Notes under the pieces: model-generated
Told to the model about the DNA's origin: nothing
Database searches by the model: none
The model's input: the letters and a program-made list of their open reading frames with translations, nothing else
Virus genome (UHGV): UHGV-0032033
Direction: 5' to 3' (one strand)
Origin: a virus
Length of the DNA: 53,461 nt
In this document: positions 3,901-25,541 of the stretch, one piece after another
How positions within the stretch are numbered: the stretch's first letter is position 1
Layout of the letters: each line of letters opens with the position of its first letter
Translations under genes and position numbers: made by a program

Positions 3901-5398
3901 CTCCAGCATCAAAGGGGAAATCGCCCGCGTTGACAAAGCAATCGCAACCGAAACGCAGGCAAGAAGCGACGCAATAACAGAGGTTAAAGCTGATTTAACC
4001 ACGCTTGAAAATAGCACGAACGCCAGTGTTAGACGCCTTGATCAAGCTATCGCTGACGAATCAAGCGCGCGCGCCCAGGCAATATCAGGCATCAGTGCGG
4101 AGCTTGGTTCTGTTGAAAGTGATGTTGATAAAAACAGCGACAAGATAGAACAGGCGAAAGCAAGCCTGCAAAACGCATCGATTGCACTTATCAACAACTC
4201 AATAGCGCAAAGCAAGATGGGCACTGTTATTGAGGCGAAATATAGGAAAAGCCAGATAAAAACAAAAGCGGAAATAGCAAGGATCGACACAGCAATAGCA
4301 GACGAAACCCAGGCACGCGCAGAGGCTATAGCTTCTCTTGAAGCCAATATTAATGAAAACATTTCAGCAAAAATAACAGATATATCAACGGCGCTCGCAA
4401 CTCACGAGGCATCAAGTGCTGAAAAATTTGTTCAAATATCGGCATCTTTCGACGATGTAAACTCAAGCATCACGGAATGGTCACAGGCCATGACAACGGC
4501 AGACGAGGCATTATCAACCAAAATTGATCAGCTGAAAGTGACCGTTAACGGAAACACAACAGCGATCGAGACAACATCGAAAGCGTTAACTGACTTTAAA
4601 GGTAACGTTGATGCGTCATATTCAATCAAGCTCGCCACCGATAACAACGGCATGACATACGCTACAGGTATGTCGCTTGGATTGACTGGAGACGGGACTA
4701 ACTTTCAATCGCAGTGTATTTTTCTGGTTGATCGCTTCGTTTTAATGACTGCGGCAAACGGTACATATCAATCGCCTTTCTATGTCACCAATGGCGCAAT
4801 GTATGTGCGCGAAGCGTTTATTAAAAACGGTTCAATCGACAATGCAAAAATAGGCAATGTCATAACATCCTACAACTGGAACGGTAGCGATCAAGGGTGG
4901 GCAATAGTTAAAGATGGCTGGGCTACATTTAACAACGTTACAGTTCGAGGCACGGTATACGCCACTAACGGCGAGTTTTCAGGGGCCGTTAGAGCCAAAT
5001 CATTTGAGGGTGGCATTAGTTCAGGTACGCAGGGAACAAGGCAATCCAGCGGGACGATCACAATTAACGTAACACCTAATACATCTAATAGTATGCTATT
5101 GCTTTTCGTTTCTGTGTACACGGCTGGTGTGCGCACAGCAAGCGGCGAACATACAGTAACACTACATGCTGGTGGTCGTAGTTTTAACGTTCCTCCGTCT
5201 TATGTTGCAAGTGGTGGCGTACCGTCAACTTACAGATTTGATTCAACTATAATCATCCCGGTAATTGGGACAAATAAGAGGGCTGTTTCGATATATTTGA
5301 GTCATGTTGGACATGTTAGCTTAATTAACACAGACATAAGACTTCTTGGCGCTGTATTACTAAACTCTTCATTTTTAACAGGTACTTTTGATTTTTAA
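992..5398 (+). CDS. tail tip host-specificity protein J-like (central tail fibre), 1468 aa
   Basis: RBS aacaggag; N-terminal ~800 aa carry lambda J hallmarks (ISEGPIYGPV, YHLRG, AFGCTSRGQAHRAGKWLI); then coiled-coil with internal duplication and C-terminal receptor-binding-like region. Confidence 0.9.
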   Translation: MSSGGGKAKTPTLINDNLYHKQFYRVLDIISEGPIYGPVNTKAPLNSVMLNDTPVTDANGNTSIPGISVAWRNGTIDQSPINGFNAIESTVIVNAQVKHDTPIIRTVSDPNVNRVRLNIGVDSLVQSDEQSNQHNTSVMMMIDVKPSSSSTWTLVKDVTIGPGKISGEYLEAHIINAPDEKPFDIRVRRVTADSTSDLLQNDTRWSSYSEIIDDNLSYPHTAVAGAVIDHDQYADTPTRTYHLRGLIVDIPDNYDPEKRTYSGLWLGGFKQAYTNNPAWIFRYLVKNERFGLARHAGYIDVDDGALYTLSRYCDQLVDDGYGGLEPRMTLNAYITEQMSARDLLDNIAGMFRGIALWDGQRLTVMIDAPQDPIATITNANVVDGAFTRSSISRAECYNAVIVSWTDPENGWEQSKEYVADDELIARDGYNETTLEAFGCTSRGQAHRAGKWLIETAKREPSKFTFKMARDAIHFTPGDIIEILDNNRAGARLGGRIVANNGKVITVDKVDSEYIAAGDTISLLDGDGKFKKHQITGVNWNKITLAAAPAWIRNGTVFAVSTESAKPVLCRIISVAETENNSVYTIEAAQHDPNKQAVVDEGAIFEINNDTLNHFRVPNIENLKVVNIGSETVQCRATWETQTTTHRMTFEIRIYNADGAVVKSYETTKYSYDFYGIDAGAYSLGVRGRNDTGMKGAESIVDLVIGAPASPIGVNWVPGVFQATVYPISKTTLTTDTAYEFYYAGENQITDPAKITTSAQFTGRGYQWTFGGMNTGHTYYVYVRTRNAFGVSDFVEASGKPTENFDEISDYVTKDVMNSEQFKGMVSDIKDLGDRTDIIESATADLKTATDGLKADTDTLKKDTEDLYKKVEENADEIGKHAVRIDSLEVSDENVNNELAQTKASLQNASLALINNSLAQTNTRVTLTAQYKKGRNETKAQIDRIDNVIADEKKATAESLETITAEMNAMDSSIKGEIARVDKAIATETQARSDAITEVKADLTTLENSTNASVRRLDQAIADESSARAQAISGISAELGSVESDVDKNSDKIEQAKASLQNASIALINNSIAQSKMGTVIEAKYRKSQIKTKAEIARIDTAIADETQARAEAIASLEANINENISAKITDISTALATHEASSAEKFVQISASFDDVNSSITEWSQAMTTADEALSTKIDQLKVTVNGNTTAIETTSKALTDFKGNVDASYSIKLATDNNGMTYATGMSLGLTGDGTNFQSQCIFLVDRFVLMTAANGTYQSPFYVTNGAMYVREAFIKNGSIDNAKIGNVITSYNWNGSDQGWAIVKDGWATFNNVTVRGTVYATNGEFSGAVRAKSFEGGISSGTQGTRQSSGTITINVTPNTSNSMLLLFVSVYTAGVRTASGEHTVTLHAGGRSFNVPPSYVASGGVPSTYRFDSTIIIPVIGTNKRAVSIYLSHVGHVSLINTDIRLLGAVLLNSSFLTGTFDF

Positions 5399-11585: not shown

Positions 11586-13007
11586 TTAAAAAGATGCGTT
11601 GGTATGGTTATTTCGTTGGGAGAATCGGCTTGTCGCCGGACGTTGTTGCATTGACTGGATGCAAGCGGACGCTGCGCGGGCCTGGTCACAAGGGAGGATA
11701 TTGCCGTTGTCGTCAAATCGCTGGTAAACAGTCCCCGTTTTCCCGTGACGGTTTTTTGAAACGATGATCTCCATGTATTCGCGGGCAACTGATTGTTCGT
11801 TGTAGTAGCCGTCACGGTAAACCATGATGATCCGGTCCGCGTCTTGTTCAAGATTACCGGAATCGCGCAGATCAGAATTGTTCGGGCGCTTGTTCGGTCG
11901 TTCTTCAACGCGGCGGGATAATTGCGCCAGTGCCGCCACTGGCACGCGCAACTCTTTCGCCATCATTTTCAATGACCACGACAATTGCCCTACAGCGAGA
12001 TCATGACGTTCGGCCTTAGCCAGTTTCATTAACCCGATGTAGTCAATCATAACCATCCCCAGGTTAGGATGGTCCTGTTTCATCCGTTCGACGGTGGCGC
12101 GTATTTCCTCGACCGTTAACTGCGATGCGTCAACAATCCACACATCGAGATCGGCAAGGGCGCTCATTCCCTGGGCGACGTGCGCCCAACCTTCGTCATC
12201 CAGTTTTACCGGATTACGAAGGCAATCCGTTGATAAGTTCCCAGCGCCAGCTATAGCGCGTTCAGTCATCTGATCGAGCGACATTTCAAGCGTAAACAGC
12301 AAAACGCCGACCCGTTGACCTTCGCTGCCAGGGTATGGACGTTCAGCCGCCGCGCGGGCAATTGCCAACGCCAACGCAGATTTACCAGACCCTGGGCGTC
12401 CGGCGATAAGCACCAGATCAGTAGCGTTAATGCCTCCTAACATTTCGTCGAGTGGGTCAATCCCTGTTTTGATGTTGTCAGAGTTAACGCCACACTCCAT
12501 GCGCTTACTTAGCACTTCCGTGTATTCCTGTACCGCGTCGCGCAACAGCACCGGAATAATCTTGTCTTTCGTTACTTTTAATTTTGAATACCGGGAATCA
12601 AAATATTTCATCGTCTCCCTGACAACTTCAAGCGTCCCGGTTTCCAGCTTGTAGCGGATATCTTCCATCAGTTCCAACATTTGCCGCCGCTGATATTCCT
12701 CCTGCAATAGCGCGGCGTACCCCTTCAGGTTGGCAGCCGAAGGACACGATCGCGCCGTTTGCATTAGCGGGATGAAGTTTTCGTTACCGATTTCATCACC
12801 GACCATCAGCGCGTCAATAAGGTTTCTGTTTCTAGCTTGCGCCCGGATGATCTCAAACGCTCGTTTATATAGTGGAATGGTGAAGACTTCAGGATCGAGC
12901 GTAGCAAGAACATCTTGCGCGTTAGGAGTAAGCCCGCCTAACAGGAGACCACCTATCACAGCCGCTTCCCGTTCCTGGCGTAATGAATTTACTTGCTCAG
13001 TCACCAT
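11586..13007 (-). CDS. dnaB: replicative DNA helicase, DnaB family
   Basis: 473 aa; Walker A GRPGSGKSALALAIA, N-terminal DnaB-like domain, C-terminal RecA-like core motifs. Confidence 0.85.
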   Translation of the reverse strand: MVTEQVNSLRQEREAAVIGGLLLGGLTPNAQDVLATLDPEVFTIPLYKRAFEIIRAQARNRNLIDALMVGDEIGNENFIPLMQTARSCPSAANLKGYAALLQEEYQRRQMLELMEDIRYKLETGTLEVVRETMKYFDSRYSKLKVTKDKIIPVLLRDAVQEYTEVLSKRMECGVNSDNIKTGIDPLDEMLGGINATDLVLIAGRPGSGKSALALAIARAAAERPYPGSEGQRVGVLLFTLEMSLDQMTERAIAGAGNLSTDCLRNPVKLDDEGWAHVAQGMSALADLDVWIVDASQLTVEEIRATVERMKQDHPNLGMVMIDYIGLMKLAKAERHDLAVGQLSWSLKMMAKELRVPVAALAQLSRRVEERPNKRPNNSDLRDSGNLEQDADRIIMVYRDGYYNEQSVAREYMEIIVSKNRHGKTGTVYQRFDDNGNILPCDQARAASACIQSMQQRPATSRFSQRNNHTNASF

Positions 13008-13025: not shown

Positions 13026-14144
13026 TTACAAAATGGAATATTCAGGGTAATAAACAAAGCGCCCGATCTCCCCATAATCAGGACTGTAAATTATTACCGC
13101 AGCCAGACGCCGCGACCGCCAGCCGCCATTCGTTGAATAAGCGTCTTTGCCCGCTAACGTGCCGTGATGTTCTACGATCCCTAACGATGTTTCTACAACA
13201 GACTGGTGATGAAGATGGCCCGTATGAGCGTAAACCGCCGCCGACTTGCCGAAATCCTCCCGCCAGTCAGAGATGCAGGCAGCTAACAAATTTTCGGGTT
13301 TTTTGATAGTGTGACCGTGATGATAGGCAAGGAATGTTTTGCCGTACTGTGTGTGGTGGACGATAGCAGGGGACACGTCAACCGTCACGCGCGGTTCATC
13401 TTCGTAAAAAGCAGCCAGCGCCGCACGTAGCCAAATCATCCCTGATTGATCATGATTTCCGCTAAGCACCTGGATCTCGACATCCTTATGATTTAGCAAC
13501 ATCTTCCCGACAGCACGCCGGACCGACCGGATCGCCACGTAAACAAGTTTTGCGTAGCGTGAATCACAATCCAAAACGTGATTACTTGATGGCGTCACTG
13601 GTAACAGTCCGTCAGTGTGGAGCACATCCCCGCCTAACAGCAAAACAGCTTTTTCAGACATCGGTGCAGCGCCTACCGCGTAGTCGAAGAAATCATTTAG
13701 CACGCGCTCAGCGATCCCAGTGTCGTAGCTCTCGCCGCATTCTGCCTTGTGAGCAAGCGCCCCGATATGCAGATCAAATACCGGATAAAGGGCCAGGCTT
13801 TTTTGGAAATCAATTTCCGGCACTGGCACGGCCTCCGCGCGGGGTATTTCTTCCGTGAATGCATCACAAGCCGATTGCATTAGCCTTTCCATTTCATCGC
13901 GATCACGGGCTGTTTTAATCCAGCGCATAATCACATTGCCATCCTTATCGACGAGCAATGACTCACCATTGACGCCAAAACCCGGCGCGCGACGCGTGGA
14001 TATTAAACCGCGTTTCGCCAACCGTGCGCCCAGGCGTTCGACGTTGCGTTTTGCCATGCCATATTTTTCTGCTATTTGCTTGTAAGTTTTCCCCTTGTTG
14101 TACTCAGCGATCAGTTCCTCATCGCTGATCTTTCTTTGTGACAT
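13026..14144 (-). CDS. HTH domain fused to calcineurin-like metallophosphoesterase
   Basis: N-terminal HTH (TYKQIAEKYGMAKRNVERLGARLAKRGLI); C-terminal phosphoesterase motifs DLHIG, GGDVLHTD, LSGNHD, HTGHLHH; occupies helicase-loader position between initiator and DnaB. Confidence 0.6.
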   Translation of the reverse strand: MSQRKISDEELIAEYNKGKTYKQIAEKYGMAKRNVERLGARLAKRGLISTRRAPGFGVNGESLLVDKDGNVIMRWIKTARDRDEMERLMQSACDAFTEEIPRAEAVPVPEIDFQKSLALYPVFDLHIGALAHKAECGESYDTGIAERVLNDFFDYAVGAAPMSEKAVLLLGGDVLHTDGLLPVTPSSNHVLDCDSRYAKLVYVAIRSVRRAVGKMLLNHKDVEIQVLSGNHDQSGMIWLRAALAAFYEDEPRVTVDVSPAIVHHTQYGKTFLAYHHGHTIKKPENLLAACISDWREDFGKSAAVYAHTGHLHHQSVVETSLGIVEHHGTLAGKDAYSTNGGWRSRRLAAVIIYSPDYGEIGRFVYYPEYSIL

Positions 14145-14537: not shown

Positions 14538-15566
14538 TCAAAGAACGCCAGCGCGTGTATCACGTAGCGTTTTTGGTTTAAGCAGGAAATCAAGTGTCGC
14601 AGTAAAGCCATTGCCGAAGTAAAAATCTGAAGCCGTGTTTTTGAACGTTTCGAAGTAGGCGACAAAGCCGTTAATGCTTTTGTCTTTCAGGTAGTCAGTG
14701 AACGCATAGATCTTGCGTTCAAGATCCCGATCCAGTTCGGCAGGTGGTAACAGGCCGTCGAATGTCTGGTTAAATGCTGATACCACGACAGCAGAGTTAA
14801 CCGTAGCTGTAACTCTTCGCCATTGTTCAGCCTTTGCCAGATATTCATCAAAGCGGTTTACCCTTGCGATCTTTATCGGTTCAGGTTTAAACGACCACGT
14901 TTCCGCTATCCAGTCGATAACCATGATCAGATCTTCTTCAGTGTATGCACTGCGTGTTTTTGTCTCCTTCAGCAGCTTGATAAAGTATTTTTTCTCCTTA
15001 TGTTTGCTATTAAACTTGTTGTTATAGTGATCGAGTACGCGCGACGCTGCCAAATCAGCCGCCTGATCTTCTTCGCTGATAGGCCCGTCTTTTTCCAATA
15101 CACGGAGTGTATTGTTTTTAATGTTCTCTTTACTGGTTATATATGACTGATTAGGGTGTCTCTCTGACACCACCCCCGGTGTCACAGTGACACTACCCTG
15201 GTGTCTCTCTGACACTACCCCCGGTGTCACAGTGACACTACCCTGGTGTCTCTCTGACACTACCCCCGGTGTCACAGTGACACTACCCTGCAATGATGGC
15301 AAGACGATGACATAGAAATTACTTGTTTGCTCTTTTCCTCCTATTAGATAACGAGGTTGTTTAATTAATAACCCTTTCTCACAAAGAGCATCAATAGCCC
15401 GCATAGCTGTACTTTTACCTATTTCGCATTGCTTCGCTATGTGCTGGTAAGAAGGGTAACATTCGCCGTTATCGTTAGCGTTATCAGCCAACTTTAACAG
15501 CACCAGTTTGTGCATTGGGTTTCCGACCTCAGTATGGAATACCTCGACCATTAGCCGCATACTCAT
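14538..15566 (-). CDS. replication initiation protein (lambda O-like architecture) containing the iteron origin
   Basis: N-terminal HTH domain (KLVLLKLADNANDNGECYPSYQHIAKQCEIGKSTAMRAIDALCEKGLLIK); central linker encoded by 3 x 45-bp iterons (GSVTVTPGVVSERHQ x3). Confidence 0.65.
   Translation of the reverse strand: MSMRLMVEVFHTEVGNPMHKLVLLKLADNANDNGECYPSYQHIAKQCEIGKSTAMRAIDALCEKGLLIKQPRYLIGGKEQTSNFYVIVLPSLQGSVTVTPGVVSERHQGSVTVTPGVVSERHQGSVTVTPGVVSERHPNQSYITSKENIKNNTLRVLEKDGPISEEDQAADLAASRVLDHYNNKFNSKHKEKKYFIKLLKETKTRSAYTEEDLIMVIDWIAETWSFKPEPIKIARVNRFDEYLAKAEQWRRVTATVNSAVVVSAFNQTFDGLLPPAELDRDLERKIYAFTDYLKDKSINGFVAYFETFKNTASDFYFGNGFTATLDFLLKPKTLRDTRAGVL
15155..15289. repeat. origin iterons: three tandem 45-bp repeats, each with two GGTGTC-N4/5-GACAC palindromes
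   Basis: ggtgtctctctgacac(t/c)acccccggtgtcacagtgacactaccct repeated 3x within initiator ORF, adjacent AT-rich stretch at ~15121-15150. Confidence 0.8.
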
Positions 15567-15911: not shown

Positions 15912-16138
15912 CAGATCCCGCCGTTGCGTGATATTTGTTTTTCGCTTCGCAGCGACACCGGATTTTTAAAGAGCTTAAGGTAAGTGCCTTTTTGTGCCTT
16001 CCGTTATCTTTTTCCTTGCGTCTTTGCAAGTATGGCCTTACCTTGTCTGCAAGTTTACAAAATGGAATTTTAAGATCAAGGCTTAAAATACACGTTTTGT
16101 GACTTGCATCAAACTTTTTGAGGTTATAGGGTAGCGAC
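15912..16138. promoter_or_regulatory. divergent immunity-region control region (cI promoter / leftward early promoter, operators)
   Basis: Intergenic between divergent cI and early operon; palindromes CTTGCgtctttGCAAG (~16015-16030) and CTTGtctgCAAG (~16042-16053); 16-mer GTTTACAAAATGGAAT at ~16053; cI ATG lacks SD (leaderless-like). Confidence 0.5.
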
Positions 16139-16786
16139 ATGAAAACAAAATGGTATGACTTAGCAAAGCAGCTCATGCGGGCGCAGGGCATGAGTCAGGA
16201 TTCACTCGCAGATCTCATGGGGATAACTAAAGGCGGCCTGTCACACTGGCTGAATGGTCGCCGCGAGCCTAATCTTGAAGATATTGCGCGGATTATGCGG
16301 GCGCTTGGTCGTCGGCAGTTTACTGTTACACATGACGGCATGGTCATTGATGATTCTGTTTCTAATACACTTCAGGCCGCGCCGCCGCGTGATTTAGGTA
16401 GTTACCCGGTTATTGACTGGAAGGACACAGTAAACAATATGGATGACACAAGGCGATCAGCATTACCACACGTTACGACTAGCGTTATTTGTTCAGATGA
16501 TAGTTACTGGCTGGTTGCCAAAGGTGAATCAATGAACGCGCCGCAGGGGTTGAGCATCCCTGCTGGGACGATGATACTTGTAGACCCGCACGCGCCAGCT
16601 ATTGACGGCAAACTGGTTATAGCCCAGCTTGAGGAAGGGCAGATACCGACGTTTAAACAGTTGATTATTGATGGAGGTCAAAGGCTTTTACGTTCGCTCA
16701 ATCCGCTGTATCCGCCAATCCCTATGAATCCAGAATCAAAAATTATAGGCGTGGTGGTTGATGCGAAGATCGTAAACCTGCCATAA
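16139..16786 (+). CDS. cI: cI-like repressor (XRE HTH + S24/LexA-type autopeptidase)
   Basis: N-terminal HTH (SQDSLADLMGITKGGLSHWLNGRREP), C-terminal S24 motifs (VAKGESMNAP, IPTFKQLIIDGG); divergent from early operon. Confidence 0.85.
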   Translation: MKTKWYDLAKQLMRAQGMSQDSLADLMGITKGGLSHWLNGRREPNLEDIARIMRALGRRQFTVTHDGMVIDDSVSNTLQAAPPRDLGSYPVIDWKDTVNNMDDTRRSALPHVTTSVICSDDSYWLVAKGESMNAPQGLSIPAGTMILVDPHAPAIDGKLVIAQLEEGQIPTFKQLIIDGGQRLLRSLNPLYPPIPMNPESKIIGVVVDAKIVNLP

Positions 16787-16789
16787 ACA

Positions 16790-16818
16790 TTAGCCGCCGG
16801 ATGGCGGCTTTTCTTTGC
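16790..16818 (+). terminator. rho-independent terminator after cI
   Basis: hairpin agccgcc-ggat-ggcggct followed by TTTCTTTG. Confidence 0.7.
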
Positions 16819-16909
16819 CCGGAAAACACCAAAACGTAAACAGAAAACGTTATTTATTGTTTAAATATCAATAGCATATAAAATATTTTAAAAAGGTATA
16901 CAAAATGGA

Positions 16910-16938
16910 TTGACTCGATGTTTTACGGGGCGTATATT
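16910..16938 (+). promoter_or_regulatory. near-consensus sigma70 promoter for rightward early operon (pL-equivalent)
   Basis: TTGACT - 17 nt - TATATT; preceded by motif AGGTATACAAAATGG; followed by ~340-nt leader before first ORF. Confidence 0.6.
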
Positions 16939-17285
16939 GCGAGTCAAAGGAAGGGCGCAGGTAACAAAAGCAACTTCCTGGCACTTTAAAAATCAGGCTT
17001 AACACCTTGTCAACCGTGGAGTAACTCCCCGATGAGGGACTGAAAGCGGCACTGATAACAAGGCGCATGGGGTGTTTAAAGCGTTACATCCCCCACGAAA
17101 CCGCACGCAAGGCGACGAGTCAGCTTGCTTGGAGTGAGCAAGGTCACGCCGGGAACGGCGATGATTGCGGGATTAGTTGAAAGATGTTAGGCCGCTCATT
17201 AACAATCTGGTCAGCCGCTGGAAGTGCGGCAATTAACGAAGATGATTTTTATTAAGTTTCATCAAGGATATACGGAGATCAGATT

Positions 17286-17576
17286 ATGAGCGTTACAATT
17301 ATGTATGGCAAATGTGACAGTAAACTGAATGCCAGGGAACGCAGAAGGATAAAAAGAGAAAACGAAAGAAAATCATCACCTGCAATCAATAAAACAGACA
17401 ATGTGGATAAAGCTATTCGATTTGCAAACGAGGAAAGATGCAAACCAAATAGCATTAAAGAACGTCGCAAAGGATCAGTAAAATGGTATACGGAAAATGA
17501 AAGCGGCAACTACTACCACGCAACGCAACCACGCCATTTAGGGGAAAAACCCCTGGATAAAGTCCGCTACCATTAA
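17286..17576 (+). CDS. hypothetical basic protein (96 aa)
   Basis: RBS ggag; Arg/Lys-rich (ARERRRIKRENERK); first ORF of rightward early operon. Confidence 0.45.
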   Translation: MSVTIMYGKCDSKLNARERRRIKRENERKSSPAINKTDNVDKAIRFANEERCKPNSIKERRKGSVKWYTENESGNYYHATQPRHLGEKPLDKVRYH

Positions 17577-17606: not shown

Positions 17607-17726
17607 ATGGTTATTCAGGCGCTTCAATTCAAACTGGCGGTAGCGGAAATGCTTCATGATGCCGAAATGTGGAGCGCCGCGAATAAAGCCTTATACGTAG
17701 TGTTAACAGCACGGGAGATTAAATAG
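17607..17726 (+). CDS. hypothetical small protein (39 aa)
   Basis: ATG-initiated mini-ORF whose stop overlaps erf GTG start; MVIQALQFKLAVAEMLHDAEMW... Confidence 0.3.
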   Translation: MVIQALQFKLAVAEMLHDAEMWSAANKALYVVLTAREIK

Positions 17727-21618: not shown

Positions 21619-21811
21619 ACATTACATGGAATGGAAAATTCCAGAAGCAGCAACAAAGGCAGCGCCAGGAAATTTTTCTGGCGTTTATTTTTATATGGAT
21701 GGCAAATGGTATTTCGGCAGCAGGCCGGATCACTATTATCAGGAAATATGCAAGCCTCACGTATGGGATATTAAAGAGCGCGTGAAAGGCGGGGTAATTG
21801 AGGACGTTTAA
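21608..21811 (+). CDS. hypothetical protein (67 aa)
   Basis: Track ORF. Confidence 0.45.
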   Translation: MKFKHYMEWKIPEAATKAAPGNFSGVYFYMDGKWYFGSRPDHYYQEICKPHVWDIKERVKGGVIEDV

Positions 21812-21812
21812 A

Positions 21813-22049
21813 ATGTTTAAGAGCTTTTTTAACTGGTTGGGGGCGTGGCTTTTGGCTACGCTTTTTGTTTTCCTGGCGGCCCTGACTGTTATCGGTGTTA
21901 TTATGCTGGGGGCTATGTTTATTACGTGGTCGCTTCCTGAATTTAACGACATTGGGAATATTCTTTTTGCAGCCCGCGCTTTATTGGCTGTTAGCGCATT
22001 CATTGGTTTTTGCTGGACTGCCGCGCCTGATTGGGCTGACACATGGTGA
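21813..22049 (+). CDS. hypothetical membrane protein (78 aa)
   Basis: Two hydrophobic helices (WLLATLFVFLAALTVIGVIMLGAMFITW; LLAVSAFIGFCW). Confidence 0.45.
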   Translation: MFKSFFNWLGAWLLATLFVFLAALTVIGVIMLGAMFITWSLPEFNDIGNILFAARALLAVSAFIGFCWTAAPDWADTW

Positions 22050-23340: not shown

Positions 23341-23824
23341 CAGGTTATTAGCCTGCGTTTATGTCGCCGTTTTTGTGATCATCAATCTTATTGTTAATCA
23401 TTGCGGCCCGTGGATAATTCCGATCACCACGGTAGCCGCCGTGTGTGTCAATATGATGATCCGTGACCTCCTGTTATATGACGGCGGCCTGAAATGGTCG
23501 GCTACAACATGCGCCGCCGCTGGCGCAATCACGGTGCTGATAAATTACGACGCCGGAATGGTGGCGATCGCGTCATTCGTTGCGGTTGTTTCCGGTGCAC
23601 TTATTTCTGGCGGCGTTTACCGGGTTTTGCCTGGTGGCTTTGATTCTAAACGTTGGCCTGCAAATATAGCGTCCGCCATTGGTGATGCGTTAATTTTTCC
23701 TACGCTATCGTTTATGGCGTTTATGCCGGAAATATCAGCTATGCAATTCATCTCAAAAATGGCAGCGGTAACGGTGATTACTATCATCATGCGACGCTAT
23801 TTCACGTTTGAGGGTAGAAAATGA
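23321..23824 (+). CDS. multi-pass membrane protein, possibly VUT/YhhQ-like transporter (tentative)
   Basis: ~4 predicted TM helices; recalled resemblance to YhhQ segments (MIRDLLLYDG, IASAIGDALIFPTLSF); start uncertain. Confidence 0.35.
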   Translation: MERVTIDRLLACVYVAVFVIINLIVNHCGPWIIPITTVAAVCVNMMIRDLLLYDGGLKWSATTCAAAGAITVLINYDAGMVAIASFVAVVSGALISGGVYRVLPGGFDSKRWPANIASAIGDALIFPTLSFMAFMPEISAMQFISKMAAVTVITIIMRRYFTFEGRK

Positions 23825-24585
23825 GCGGGCTTAGAAATTGGGTTATCTGGTCGCTGTATGACGGCAGCGGGTACGCCGTTAAAGATTGGGCGGACGCTGG
23901 TTATAAATGTTATTGCTTCAACTATGACGGCGCTAATCACGGGGATTATGACGGGGTAAAAATAATTCATCCAAATATTGAATATGTCAATGTCTGGATT
24001 GACAGCCATTTCCTGGTAATGTTCTCCCCTGAATTGTCTGTTTATCCAGATCCTGACATTATCCTGGCCTTTCCGCCATGCGACCATCTCGCCGTGTCAG
24101 GCGCTCGTTGGTTTGCCAGCAAGCGTGAAAAAGATCCTGATTTTCAGGTGAAAGCGGCATACAACGCAAAACTGGTAGAAACGCTGGCTGATATGTATCA
24201 CGTCCCGTGGATGGTGGAAAATCCGGTAGGCGCACTGTCAACGTTATGGCGTAAACCGGATTTCATCTTCAATCCGTGCGCTTACGGTGGCTACCTGCCG
24301 GAAGATGATGAACATCCCGCTTTCCCGGAATACATAGCCGCCCGCGACGCTTACACGAAGAAAACATGTATCTGGTGCGGGAATGGATTTAAGCAGCCGC
24401 TATTCCGGCCTGTACCGATGCCGGATGAATGGGAAAACAGCAAACAGTACGCGAAATTGGGCGGGAAGTCGAAACGCACTAAGATGATCCGCTCACTAAC
24501 GCCGCGCGGCTTTGCCCGTGCTGTATTCATGGCTAACGACCGGGCCATCACTCGTACTACGCTTAACCGCGTTTTACCGGACTAA
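23821..24585 (+). CDS. compact DNA cytosine-C5 methyltransferase-like protein (254 aa)
   Basis: Motif I-like IWSLYDGSGYA, PC motif ILAFPPCDHLAVSGARW, ENV-like WMVENPVGAL, C-terminal TPRGFARAVFMAND; much shorter than canonical C5-MTases. Confidence 0.5.
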   Translation: MSGLRNWVIWSLYDGSGYAVKDWADAGYKCYCFNYDGANHGDYDGVKIIHPNIEYVNVWIDSHFLVMFSPELSVYPDPDIILAFPPCDHLAVSGARWFASKREKDPDFQVKAAYNAKLVETLADMYHVPWMVENPVGALSTLWRKPDFIFNPCAYGGYLPEDDEHPAFPEYIAARDAYTKKTCIWCGNGFKQPLFRPVPMPDEWENSKQYAKLGGKSKRTKMIRSLTPRGFARAVFMANDRAITRTTLNRVLPD

Positions 24586-24744
24586 AGTTTACAAAATGGC
24601 GTCATTGCGTGATGCGGATCACATAATGGCGCTTTTTGCCTTGTTTGGGGGTATCCATTTTGTATACTTCAAGCAAACAAAATGCTCTTTAAAAATCCGG
24701 CAGCGCTGAAATGCGTAGAAATCACCTGAAAAGGAGAGAGCATT

Positions 24745-24935: not shown

Positions 24936-25541
24936 ATGCAAAACCCTAAAAAACCCATAAGACGCCGTTGCAAATGCTGCGGCGTTTTTTTTGAGCCTAA
25001 ATATCACAATCAAACGTGGTGCAGCGATGAATGTCTGGAAGAACTGAAGTTTGATCAGCTATGTCGCGACCGTGAGAAGGCTATGAAGGCTATGGAGCGG
25101 AAGAAACGCCGTGATAGCCAGCGTGAAGAACGCAACCGGAAGCGTAAACAGTTAAATCCGCGTAGTTATTGGTTAAAGCAGGCGCAAGCGGTATTTAATG
25201 CATATATCCGCGAACGCGACGCGGGTCAGCCGTGTATATCTTGCGGGACTTATTACGGCGATCAGTGTTCCTGGGATGCCGGGCACTATAGAACGGTTGC
25301 TGCCGCAGGGCACCTTCGTTTTAACGAAGATAACTGCCATCGCCAATGCAGGCACTGCAACCAGACATTAGACGGCAACATAGCAGCTTATCGCCCTGCA
25401 CTGATTAGAAAAATTGGCCTCGCCAGGGTGGAAGCGCTGGAGAACAACAACGATACGCATAAATGGACGATCGAAGAATGTAAAGAGATTATAAAAATCT
25501 ATCAGGCGAAATTGGACGCCTTAAGGAGAAAGGCAGCATGA
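24936..25541 (+). CDS. ninG: NinG/Rap-like recombination protein
   Basis: 201 aa from internal Met; Cys-rich clusters (RRCKCCGVFFEPKYHNQTWCSDEC; CISCGTYYGDQC; CHRQCRHCN); precedes rusA as in lambda nin region. Confidence 0.7.
   Translation: MQNPKKPIRRRCKCCGVFFEPKYHNQTWCSDECLEELKFDQLCRDREKAMKAMERKKRRDSQREERNRKRKQLNPRSYWLKQAQAVFNAYIRERDAGQPCISCGTYYGDQCSWDAGHYRTVAAAGHLRFNEDNCHRQCRHCNQTLDGNIAAYRPALIRKIGLARVEALENNNDTHKWTIEECKEIIKIYQAKLDALRRKAA

Follow-up and report, generated by a model that had tools for sequence, protein, structure and literature searches.

Positions 16,910-17,285 of the virus genome UHGV-0032033 very probably hold the rightward early promoter and the 5' leader of gp17, the N-like gene of an mEp021-group phage. 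The genome was analysed as one stretch of 53,461 nucleotides, called the window below. The leader harbors a nut site that has already been published, together with a GC-rich segment of ~212 nt (the "insert") that is best explained as a tolerated addition. On its sequence features, the nut interpretation is correct, and the site was known before: it is the published nutR1 of phage mEp021, and it displays all the sequence-level features of the lambda-type nut class. The promoter, the anatomy of boxA and boxB, the covariation of boxB, the three nut sites, and the downstream terminators have been derived here; the role of Gp17 and the Nus dependence are from the literature. The main finding adds little that is new, since the nut site and an N-like system have been described for mEp021-group phages and are here re-identified from raw sequence. 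Base-level coordinates are added, as well as a covariation support for boxB that was not found in the accessible literature.

In sequence comparisons, this region of the window is 93-98% identical to Enterobacteria phage mEp021, Escherichia phages mEp010 and mEp515, and MagusPhagus. The gene order is also that of mEp021, with leftward replication genes and, in the rightward direction, the repressor, its terminator, gp16, gp17, gp18, erf, ssb, and abc2. Judged by these similarities, the window is a temperate coliphage of the mEp021 group (mEpimmI), being another isolate or a prophage of the group. The likeness to the mEp021 nutR1/Gp17 system (Valencia-Toxqui et al. 2023, Arch Virol 168:92; Negrete-Mendez et al. 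2025, PMC11893012) extends to the three nut positions and to the Gp17 arginines, with nothing essential different. The N-like gene is preceded by a ribosome-binding site:

17274-17277 (+), Shine-Dalgarno GGAG of gp17, 8 nt upstream of the ATG at 17286, annotated as ribosome binding site in mEp021
17286-17576 (+), gp17, N-like antiterminator of 96 residues, matching phrog_271 ("anti-termination protein N-like", E = 2.9e-12)

The mEpimmI group has been described, in the accessible text on these phages, as Nus-dependent but non-lambdoid (Negrete-Mendez et al. 2025, PMC11893012). According to the same accessible text, Gp17 is the lambda-N-like protein behind early antitermination in the mEp021 group (PMC11893012, citing Valencia-Toxqui 2023). 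Its target sites are nutL, upstream of the repressor gene gp15, nutR1, which precedes gp17, and nutR2, which follows the cytosine methyltransferase gene; terminator readthrough at the three mEp021 sites is Gp17- and Nus-dependent, and requires Gp17 (PMC11893012). In that text, nutR1 is reported in all 48 genomes as the most variable of the three nut sites, and arginines 17, 19, 20, and 24 of Gp17 as invariant (PMC11893012). The Gp17 homologue of the window displays an arginine-rich motif, NARERRRIKRENERK, at residues 15-29, with R17, R19, R20, R21, and R24, in agreement with the positions given there as conserved. It matches no Pfam family in a Pfam search, and a search of 5.8 billion proteins restricts the family to E. 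coli phages and prophages.

The rrn boxA consensus is GCTCTTTAACAA. A near-canonical copy of it and a GC-rich hairpin form nutR1 between the insert and gp17, and two similar modules are found elsewhere in the window:

17194-17205 (+), boxA of nutR1, GCTCATTAACAA, identical to the rrn boxA at 11 of 12 positions
17214-17230 (+), boxB of nutR1, GCCGC-UGGAAGU-GCGGC, separated from boxA by 8 nt and from the gp17 start codon by 55 nt
15935-15974 (-), nutL, boxA GCTCTTTAAAAA and boxB CGC-UGCGAA-GCG, in the gap that separates the repressor gene from the first leftward ORF (open reading frame), on the leftward transcript; 56.9 bits under a covariance model whose training alignment includes it
24684-24723 (+), nutR2, boxA GCTCTTTAAAAA and boxB GCGC-UGAAAU-GCGU, 7.5 kb downstream of nutR1; 50.1 bits under the same model, likewise trained on it
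23821-24585, DNA methyltransferase gene (phrog_757), just upstream of nutR2

The positions of nutL and nutR2 agree with those given in the accessible text of PMC11893012; the nut sequences themselves are not given in its supplements. The window has just three occurrences of the 11-mer CTTTAAAAATC: at 24687(+) and 15971(-), where a small GC hairpin follows 7-8 nt on, and at 16984(+), without such a hairpin.

The conservation of nutR1 was followed in the spacers between repressor gene and gp17 of 12, then 44 distinct relatives, which were aligned; six further loci, with Gp17 variants only 63-79% identical, were added. The boxA and boxB module is present upstream of gp17 in all of the 44+ leaders, those with Gp17 variants of only 63-72% identity included, and the hairpin lies 6-9 nt after boxA in every genome. 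The boxA of the short-leader relatives, which are devoid of the insert, is the exact rrn consensus GCTCTTTAACAA. The boxB stems are swapped by compensatory changes, and seven stem versions keep a loop of the U-G-(A/G)-A-A type. The following were found at the nutR1 position, L054 to L057 being the four most divergent lineages recovered:

RM9245-type, GCUAC-UGAAAU-GUAGC
L054, UGCAC-UGAAAU-GUGCA
L055, GCAC-UGAAAA-GUGC
L056, CGC-UGAAAU-GCG
L057, GCUC-UGAAAA-GAGC

Alignment A1 gathers 16 distinct versions of nutR1, nutR2, and nutL. Within its boxB, 95% of the cells are paired and three pairs are changed on both sides; none of 500 shuffles reaches the covariation score, and the signal is lost when the partner columns are slid. 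The boxB hairpin at 17214-17230 is also present in the minimum free energy (MFE) fold of the whole leader. The original prediction had compared the leader to nut/boxB antitermination RNA and had proposed folding and covariation as a check. The comparison holds: a boxA and boxB module precedes an N-like gene, its boxB stem covaries among homologues, and two matching nut sites exist elsewhere in the genome. The same prediction had found no canonical boxA. Two boxA-like words are present, the near-canonical one of nutR1 and a second one further upstream:

16981-16992 (+), orphan boxA-like word GCACTTTAAAAA, not followed by a boxB, marking the 5' side of the insert

This orphan word has CTTTAAAAATC in common with the nutL and nutR2 boxA and is missing from all short-leader relatives. 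Its combination with CAGG-CUUAACA-CCUUG or GGAG-UAA-CUCC was considered as a fourth nut site and discarded, as no boxB is recognised there by the covariance model and the short-leader phages do without it. A 7-bp pairing of GCACUUU (16981-16987) with GGAAGUGC in boxB is not conserved in the RM9245 lineage and was taken as chance.

The sequence evidence identifies nutR1 with 17194-17230, and its boxB with the third hairpin named in the original prediction. The presence of nutR1 in all 48 genomes and its rank as the most variable site, as reported in the accessible text of PMC11893012, fit 17194-17230 and not the 16981 word, which is absent from a third of the genomes. The covariance model built from A1 leads to the same assignment, since it finds three full sites in the window (nutL, nutR1 at 17194-17236, and nutR2) and only a boxA half at 16981 (14 bits); beyond these, the whole window yields just noise below 10 bits. 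In mEp021, the 17194-type module lies 7947 nt upstream of nutR2 and the 16981-type word 8161 nt upstream. The abstract of the 2023 mEp021 paper is said to place nutR2 "more than 7.9 kbp downstream of nutR1", a distance that fits the 17194-type module.

Several points weigh against this interpretation. The scores of the three window sites (50-57 bits, with nutR1 at 49.5 bits) are high by construction, as the three belong to the training alignment of the model, and the informative part is the absence of further sites. The boxA of the window nutR1 has one mismatch to the consensus, and its boxB loop, UGGAAGU, has one base more than the UGAAAU/A loop seen in nutR2 and in the divergent relatives. 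The authors of the mEp021 work might have put nutR1 at the orphan boxA (mEp021 position 12012) and not at 12226-12262, the counterpart of 17194-17230 in the window. The transcription start, the leader RNA, and the binding of Gp17 are predictions from the sequence of the window, and the role proposed for the insert is one that we infer.

Functionally, transcription would start near 16945, and the nascent leader would expose boxA (17194-17205) and boxB (17214-17230) of nutR1. Gp17, translated from the same transcript, would bind the boxB loop via its arginine-rich motif. The host NusB/NusE on boxA, with NusA and NusG, would then make the RNA polymerase resistant to termination, and the modified polymerase could read past terminators such as those at 21661 and 21839, towards nutR2. 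These two sites are candidate readthrough targets:

21661-21685 and 21839-21865 (+), strong intrinsic-terminator-like sites separated by 180 nt and lying amid the rightward early operon, with nutR1 upstream and nutR2 downstream

Another terminator-like site follows nutR2, at 24966.

The promoter from which this transcript would originate stands between the repressor gene and the insert:

16139-16786 (+), repressor gene, cI-like, homologue of gp15/Rep021, with HTH_3 and Peptidase_S24 domains
16792-16817 (+), intrinsic terminator closing the repressor transcript (stem 16792-16809 and T-run), with a seven-pair GC-rich stem, a terminator also in the annotations of mEp021, mEp013, and mEp044
16897-16908 (+), word TATACAAAATGG directly 5' of the -35 hexamer, a candidate half-site
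16910-16938 (+), rightward early promoter (PR-equivalent), -35 TTGACT at 16910-16915, 17-nt spacer, -10 TATATT at 16933-16938, matching the consensus at 10 of 12 positions

The stem of the repressor terminator is constant in the relatives, and its loop variable. The near-consensus promoter of the original prediction was found as described, but it is not "immediately" after this terminator, the gap being ~100 nt. A consensus scan finds six promoter-like sites where 6.2 are expected from shuffles. The consensus match alone therefore proves nothing, and it is conservation that carries the promoter call. Both hexamers and their 17-nt spacing are constant in 44/44 distinct homologous leaders, in which the spacer sequence varies; in the most divergent relatives, with a wholly different spacer, TTGACA-17-TATAGT (L055) and TTGACA-17-TATATT (L056) are found. 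An antisense promoter, TTGCCA-17-CATAAT at 17311-17283, was discarded, since the gp17 start codon overlaps with its -10, which is unconserved and reads GATCATG in many relatives.

The word TATACAAAATGG may be an operator half-site, bound by the repressor or by some other phage regulator. Allowing one mismatch at most, the 10-mer TACAAAATGG has 20 sites in the window for 5.6 expected, and none of 100 shuffles reaches 20. Almost all relatives keep the copy at 16899 unchanged, and another one (16056, +) belongs to the divergent promoter region that precedes the repressor gene. It is thus a candidate binding site, by its sequence and distribution, for the repressor or another phage regulator. Other sites are at 13027(+), 24590(+)/24664(-), 30729(+)/30764(-), and 47338(+)/47373(-). 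They often form inverted pairs 26-65 nt apart in intergenic positions, the late region included, and hence beyond the immunity region. The inverted pair 24590-24664 brackets ~55 bp directly upstream of nutR2; a regulated internal promoter, and not solely readthrough from nutR1, may therefore feed nutR2.

The leader extends from ~16945 to 17285 (~341 nt), the next substantial ORF starting at 17286. Its GC content is 48-55%, as against 36-38% in the flanks, and the MFE of the whole leader RNA is -110.5 kcal/mol (z = -3.6), with none of 100 dinucleotide shuffles folding as well. The description of this leader as ~340 nt long, GC-rich, and hairpin-rich was therefore accurate. The three hairpins that had been named exist, at 17124-17142, 17147-17160, and 17214-17230; the sequence of the last one had been given correctly, and its position (~17207) a few bases off. 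As elements of a nut site, only this last one stands, being boxB, and the other two belong to the dispensable insert. The hairpin at 17147-17160, with its GGAA/GAAA loop, was tried as a boxB and rejected, having no boxA at the right spacing and a stem mismatch in eight variants. The leader had also been described as devoid of ORFs. Small ORFs are present, one of which (17067-17180, 37 residues) is annotated as gp16 in mEp021, though it is apparently non-coding (see below).

Phage HK022 offers another model for such a leader. The put sites need neither a phage antiterminator protein nor a boxA. A put-type RNA, here the leader or the insert, would make the polymerase resistant to termination on its own, as the original prediction had also envisaged. 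This is hardly credible for the present phage. Although, as in HK022, a structured RNA with several stem-loops concerned with terminator readthrough occurs just after the early promoter, and although the insert is without an assigned function, the phage possesses both a boxA and an N-like protein that readthrough requires according to the literature. Furthermore, the short-leader phages do without the insert, and only chance 9-10-mers are shared with the HK022 region holding PL, PR, and the put sites, by sequence comparison alone.

The GC-rich segment that distinguishes long from short leaders was delimited by alignment, and the following elements were recognised in it:

16966-17178 (+), GC-rich segment (~212 nt) of the long leaders, from the alignment of distinct leaders
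16996-17193 (+), insert core with pairable ends, predicted, 16996-17004 facing 17185-17193 and 17010-17014 facing 17176-17180
17124-17142 (+), insert hairpin CUUGCU-UGGAGUG-AGCAAG, the sole insert helix with compensatory support
17147-17160 (+), insert hairpin CGCCG-GGAA-CGGCG, with a GNRA-type loop (GAAA in eight variants)

The boundaries of the insert depend on the alignment because boxA-like direct repeats, GCACTTTAAAAATC and GCTCATTAACAATC, identical at 11 of 14 positions, are found on both sides. The insert accounts for about two thirds of the leader and separates the promoter from nutR1. The insert is present in 31 of the 44 distinct leaders and absent from 13 (~70% vs ~30%). Long leaders occur in mEp021, mEp010, and mEp515, and short ones, among others, in the plaque formers mEp013, mEp044, and mEp554; these six are natural isolates of one laboratory collection. 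Since ~30% of the distinct leaders are without it, the insert is not needed for nut function. It was probably gained, being absent from all of the four most divergent lineages (L054-L057). This dimorphism is apparently undescribed and is a modest curiosity; the accessible text of PMC11893012 contains no mention of long and short leaders, of a second boxA-like word, or of gp16. The dimorphic leader is what merits the attention of specialists, the long and short natural isolates making it easy to test whether leader structure and boxA dosage tune N-type antitermination.

Copies of the insert are found in 35 of 5426 complete E. coli genomes, at one place each and always between the early promoter and nutR1, and in the same context in 35 IMG/VR contigs and 11 metagenome contigs. 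It is absent from plasmids and other phages, and species-representative genomes give only one chance 20-mer. This match, at 4922-4941 of a Pirellulaceae genome bin (L096, CAZROJ010000013.1), lies in unrelated high-GC DNA, and a single 20-mer match in 596 Gb means nothing. Among lineages, the insert is 93-97% identical, for 90-94% in the repressor gene and 88-91% in the spacer from terminator to promoter; an "exceptional conservation" was therefore rejected, the insert being only slightly better conserved than its neighbours. It has a positive GC skew (more G than C), and no Rfam family or convincing coding signal was found for it. Most likely, the insert is a tolerated addition, of which the compact fold and the bias of G over C would shield the long untranslated leader from Rho. 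A modulatory role is possible.

The precise polymorphism at a single site also evokes a functionless relic of a mobile or recombinational insertion, either MITE-like (miniature inverted-repeat transposable element) or resulting from the illegitimate join of two nut regions. Its ends are imperfect inverted repeats of ~19 nt, and the flanking boxA-like repeats and the insert-free L054-L057 lineages would suit such an origin. Against it stand the single copy in one invariable context, with no plasmid and no other phage in the collections above, and a duplication of ~14-30 nt, too long for the usual target-site duplication of a transposase. The compensatory changes in one hairpin, described next, also argue for some constraint, and a pure relic is deemed improbable.

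Structurally, the single-sequence fold and the RNAalifold consensus fold agree on a prediction in which a closing helix surrounds a multi-branched domain. One strand of this helix (16996-17014) lies directly 3' of the orphan boxA and the other (17176-17193) directly 5' of the nutR1 boxA; 17 of their 19 positions pair in mEp021-type sequences, which would equally suit an RNA helix or a terminal inverted repeat. If the predicted closing helix forms, the insert would be looped out and the two boxA words brought side by side. A rival local helix pairs 17005-17018 with 17050-17063. The consensus fold has 58 pairs, and only the hairpin at 17124-17142 shows compensatory changes: the RM9245 lineage reads AUCACU...AGUGGU, with both sides altered in three pairs and a U-A pair turned into U-G. 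The neighbouring hairpin at 17147-17160 is without covariation support, as G17148A produces an A-C stem mismatch in eight variants. Single changes in the predicted insert helices are compatible in four cases and disruptive in five, and the segment 16981-17236 folded alone is marginally better than its shuffles (z = -1.9). The full fold of the insert is therefore not claimed, given these single changes, the one compensated hairpin, and the competing local helix. The insert variants are too few for a real covariation test.

These features nevertheless bear on whether the insert is itself a functional RNA, a reading that is compatible with nutR1 as the nut site. It could be a stable small RNA (sRNA), for instance through an RNase III cut of its imperfect ~14-pair terminal helix, or a cis-acting domain tuning the assembly of Nus factors and Gp17 or the stability of the gp17 mRNA. 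This is conceivable but rather doubtful. The whole leader folds better than every shuffle, three pairs are compensated in the 17124-17142 hairpin, and the insert is somewhat more identical among lineages than the repressor gene and the spacer. Furthermore, the layout, a boxA, a closing helix with a structured domain, and a boxA, is reminiscent of rRNA operons. The nutR1 boxA also differs between the two leader types: it is canonical (GCTCTTT...) in every short leader, whereas 32 of the 33 distinct long leaders have a change in its 5' half, of one of three kinds (GCTCATT, ATTCTTT, and TCTCTTT). This hints that the upstream boxA shares the load and may have relaxed selection on the downstream one, a lead drawn from few lineages. 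On the other side, the variation stems from two or three lineages, and the association with boxA is confounded by ancestry. The fold of 16981-17236 and the balance of single changes are those given above, and 13 of the 44 distinct leaders, plaque formers included, are without the insert. No terminator was found inside the leader by a terminator scan, no known processing signal in it, and no Rfam family: Rfam 15, searched with lenient cut-offs for a 2.1-kb stretch and for just the leader, gave only chance hits, and the best leader scores are 13.6-15.2 bits for gathering thresholds of 39-61. The search against Rfam proposed in the original prediction thus gave no family for the leader, and the sRNA that it had suggested found no positive evidence.

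A bolder version would make the insert a new phage non-coding RNA module, with its own boxA loading NusB/E and a closed multi-branched domain, either cut out as a stable RNA or setting in cis the amount of Gp17-modified polymerase. We consider this unlikely. If it were true, the decay of the nutR1 boxA in long-leader phages would represent a hand-over of the boxA function to the insert.

The insert also contains the mini-ORF mentioned above:

17067-17180 (+), 37-residue mini-ORF, gp16 in mEp021, also annotated in mEp010-type records and MagusPhagus

That the insert exists to encode this protein is very improbable, although the ORF is annotated in these phages and open in 17 of 18 distinct variants, the stop codon being lost in one. 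Its substitutions are 7 synonymous and 12 non-synonymous and fall at codon positions 9:3:7, with no third-position excess, and its amino-acid changes follow the compensation of the RNA hairpin. The AAGG only 3 nt from its ATG is a poor ribosome-binding context. No PHROG or Pfam family is matched by gp16, whereas its 39-residue neighbour gp18 has one. The ORF is absent from short-leader phages and is not called by NCBI PGAP in E. coli prophages. On these features, gp16 is probably not a gene.

The leader can be compared to known antitermination systems. As in lambda N with nutL and nutR, an early promoter repressed by a cI-type repressor is followed by the gene of a small arginine-rich protein encoded just downstream, and 7-9 nt separate boxA from a short, GC-rich hairpin downstream, whose loop is purine-rich and GNRA-like; Nus dependence, from the literature, is also shared. 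The lambda nutL boxA region, CGCTCTTAAAAATTAA, resembles GCTCTTTAAAAATCC of the window. Lambda has two nut sites, whereas three are found here, the third 7.5 kb into the same operon, and the boxA is of the rrn type (UUUAA). In contrast with the lambda boxB, a 5-bp stem with a GAAAA pentaloop, the stems have 3-5 bp and the loops 6-7 nt (U-GAAA-U/A, UGCGAA, UGGAAGU). Gp17, unlike its lambda counterpart, is without a Pfam family. The lambda N leader contains a structured RNase III site downstream of nutL, whereas the 212-nt insert of the long-leader phages is located upstream of nut.

In rRNA operons, boxA precedes RNase III stems. The E. coli rrn operons share with the short-leader relatives the exact boxA core GCTCTTTAACAA, and with the long leaders a boxA before a helix closing a structured RNA, followed by a second boxA, as around the 16S rRNA. 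In contrast with rrn, boxA would act here together with a boxB hairpin and a phage protein; a boxC was not found, and the enclosed RNA is of ~180 nt.

Downstream of gp17, the 39-residue ORF 17607-17726 (gp18) strongly matches phrog_34942. It is also weakly similar to lambda Kil (Pfam PF06301, 21 bits, below the cut-off; phrog_2055, E = 0.0012), which suggests a Kil-like septation inhibitor adjoining the N-like gene. On the leftward side, the replication-protein ORF 14538-15566 (-) contains a 45-bp unit repeated three times at 15155-15290 (or a 23-bp unit repeated about six times), so that GSVTVTPGVVSERHQ appears three times in the protein. By analogy with lambda O, these repeats are probably origin iterons located inside the initiator gene.

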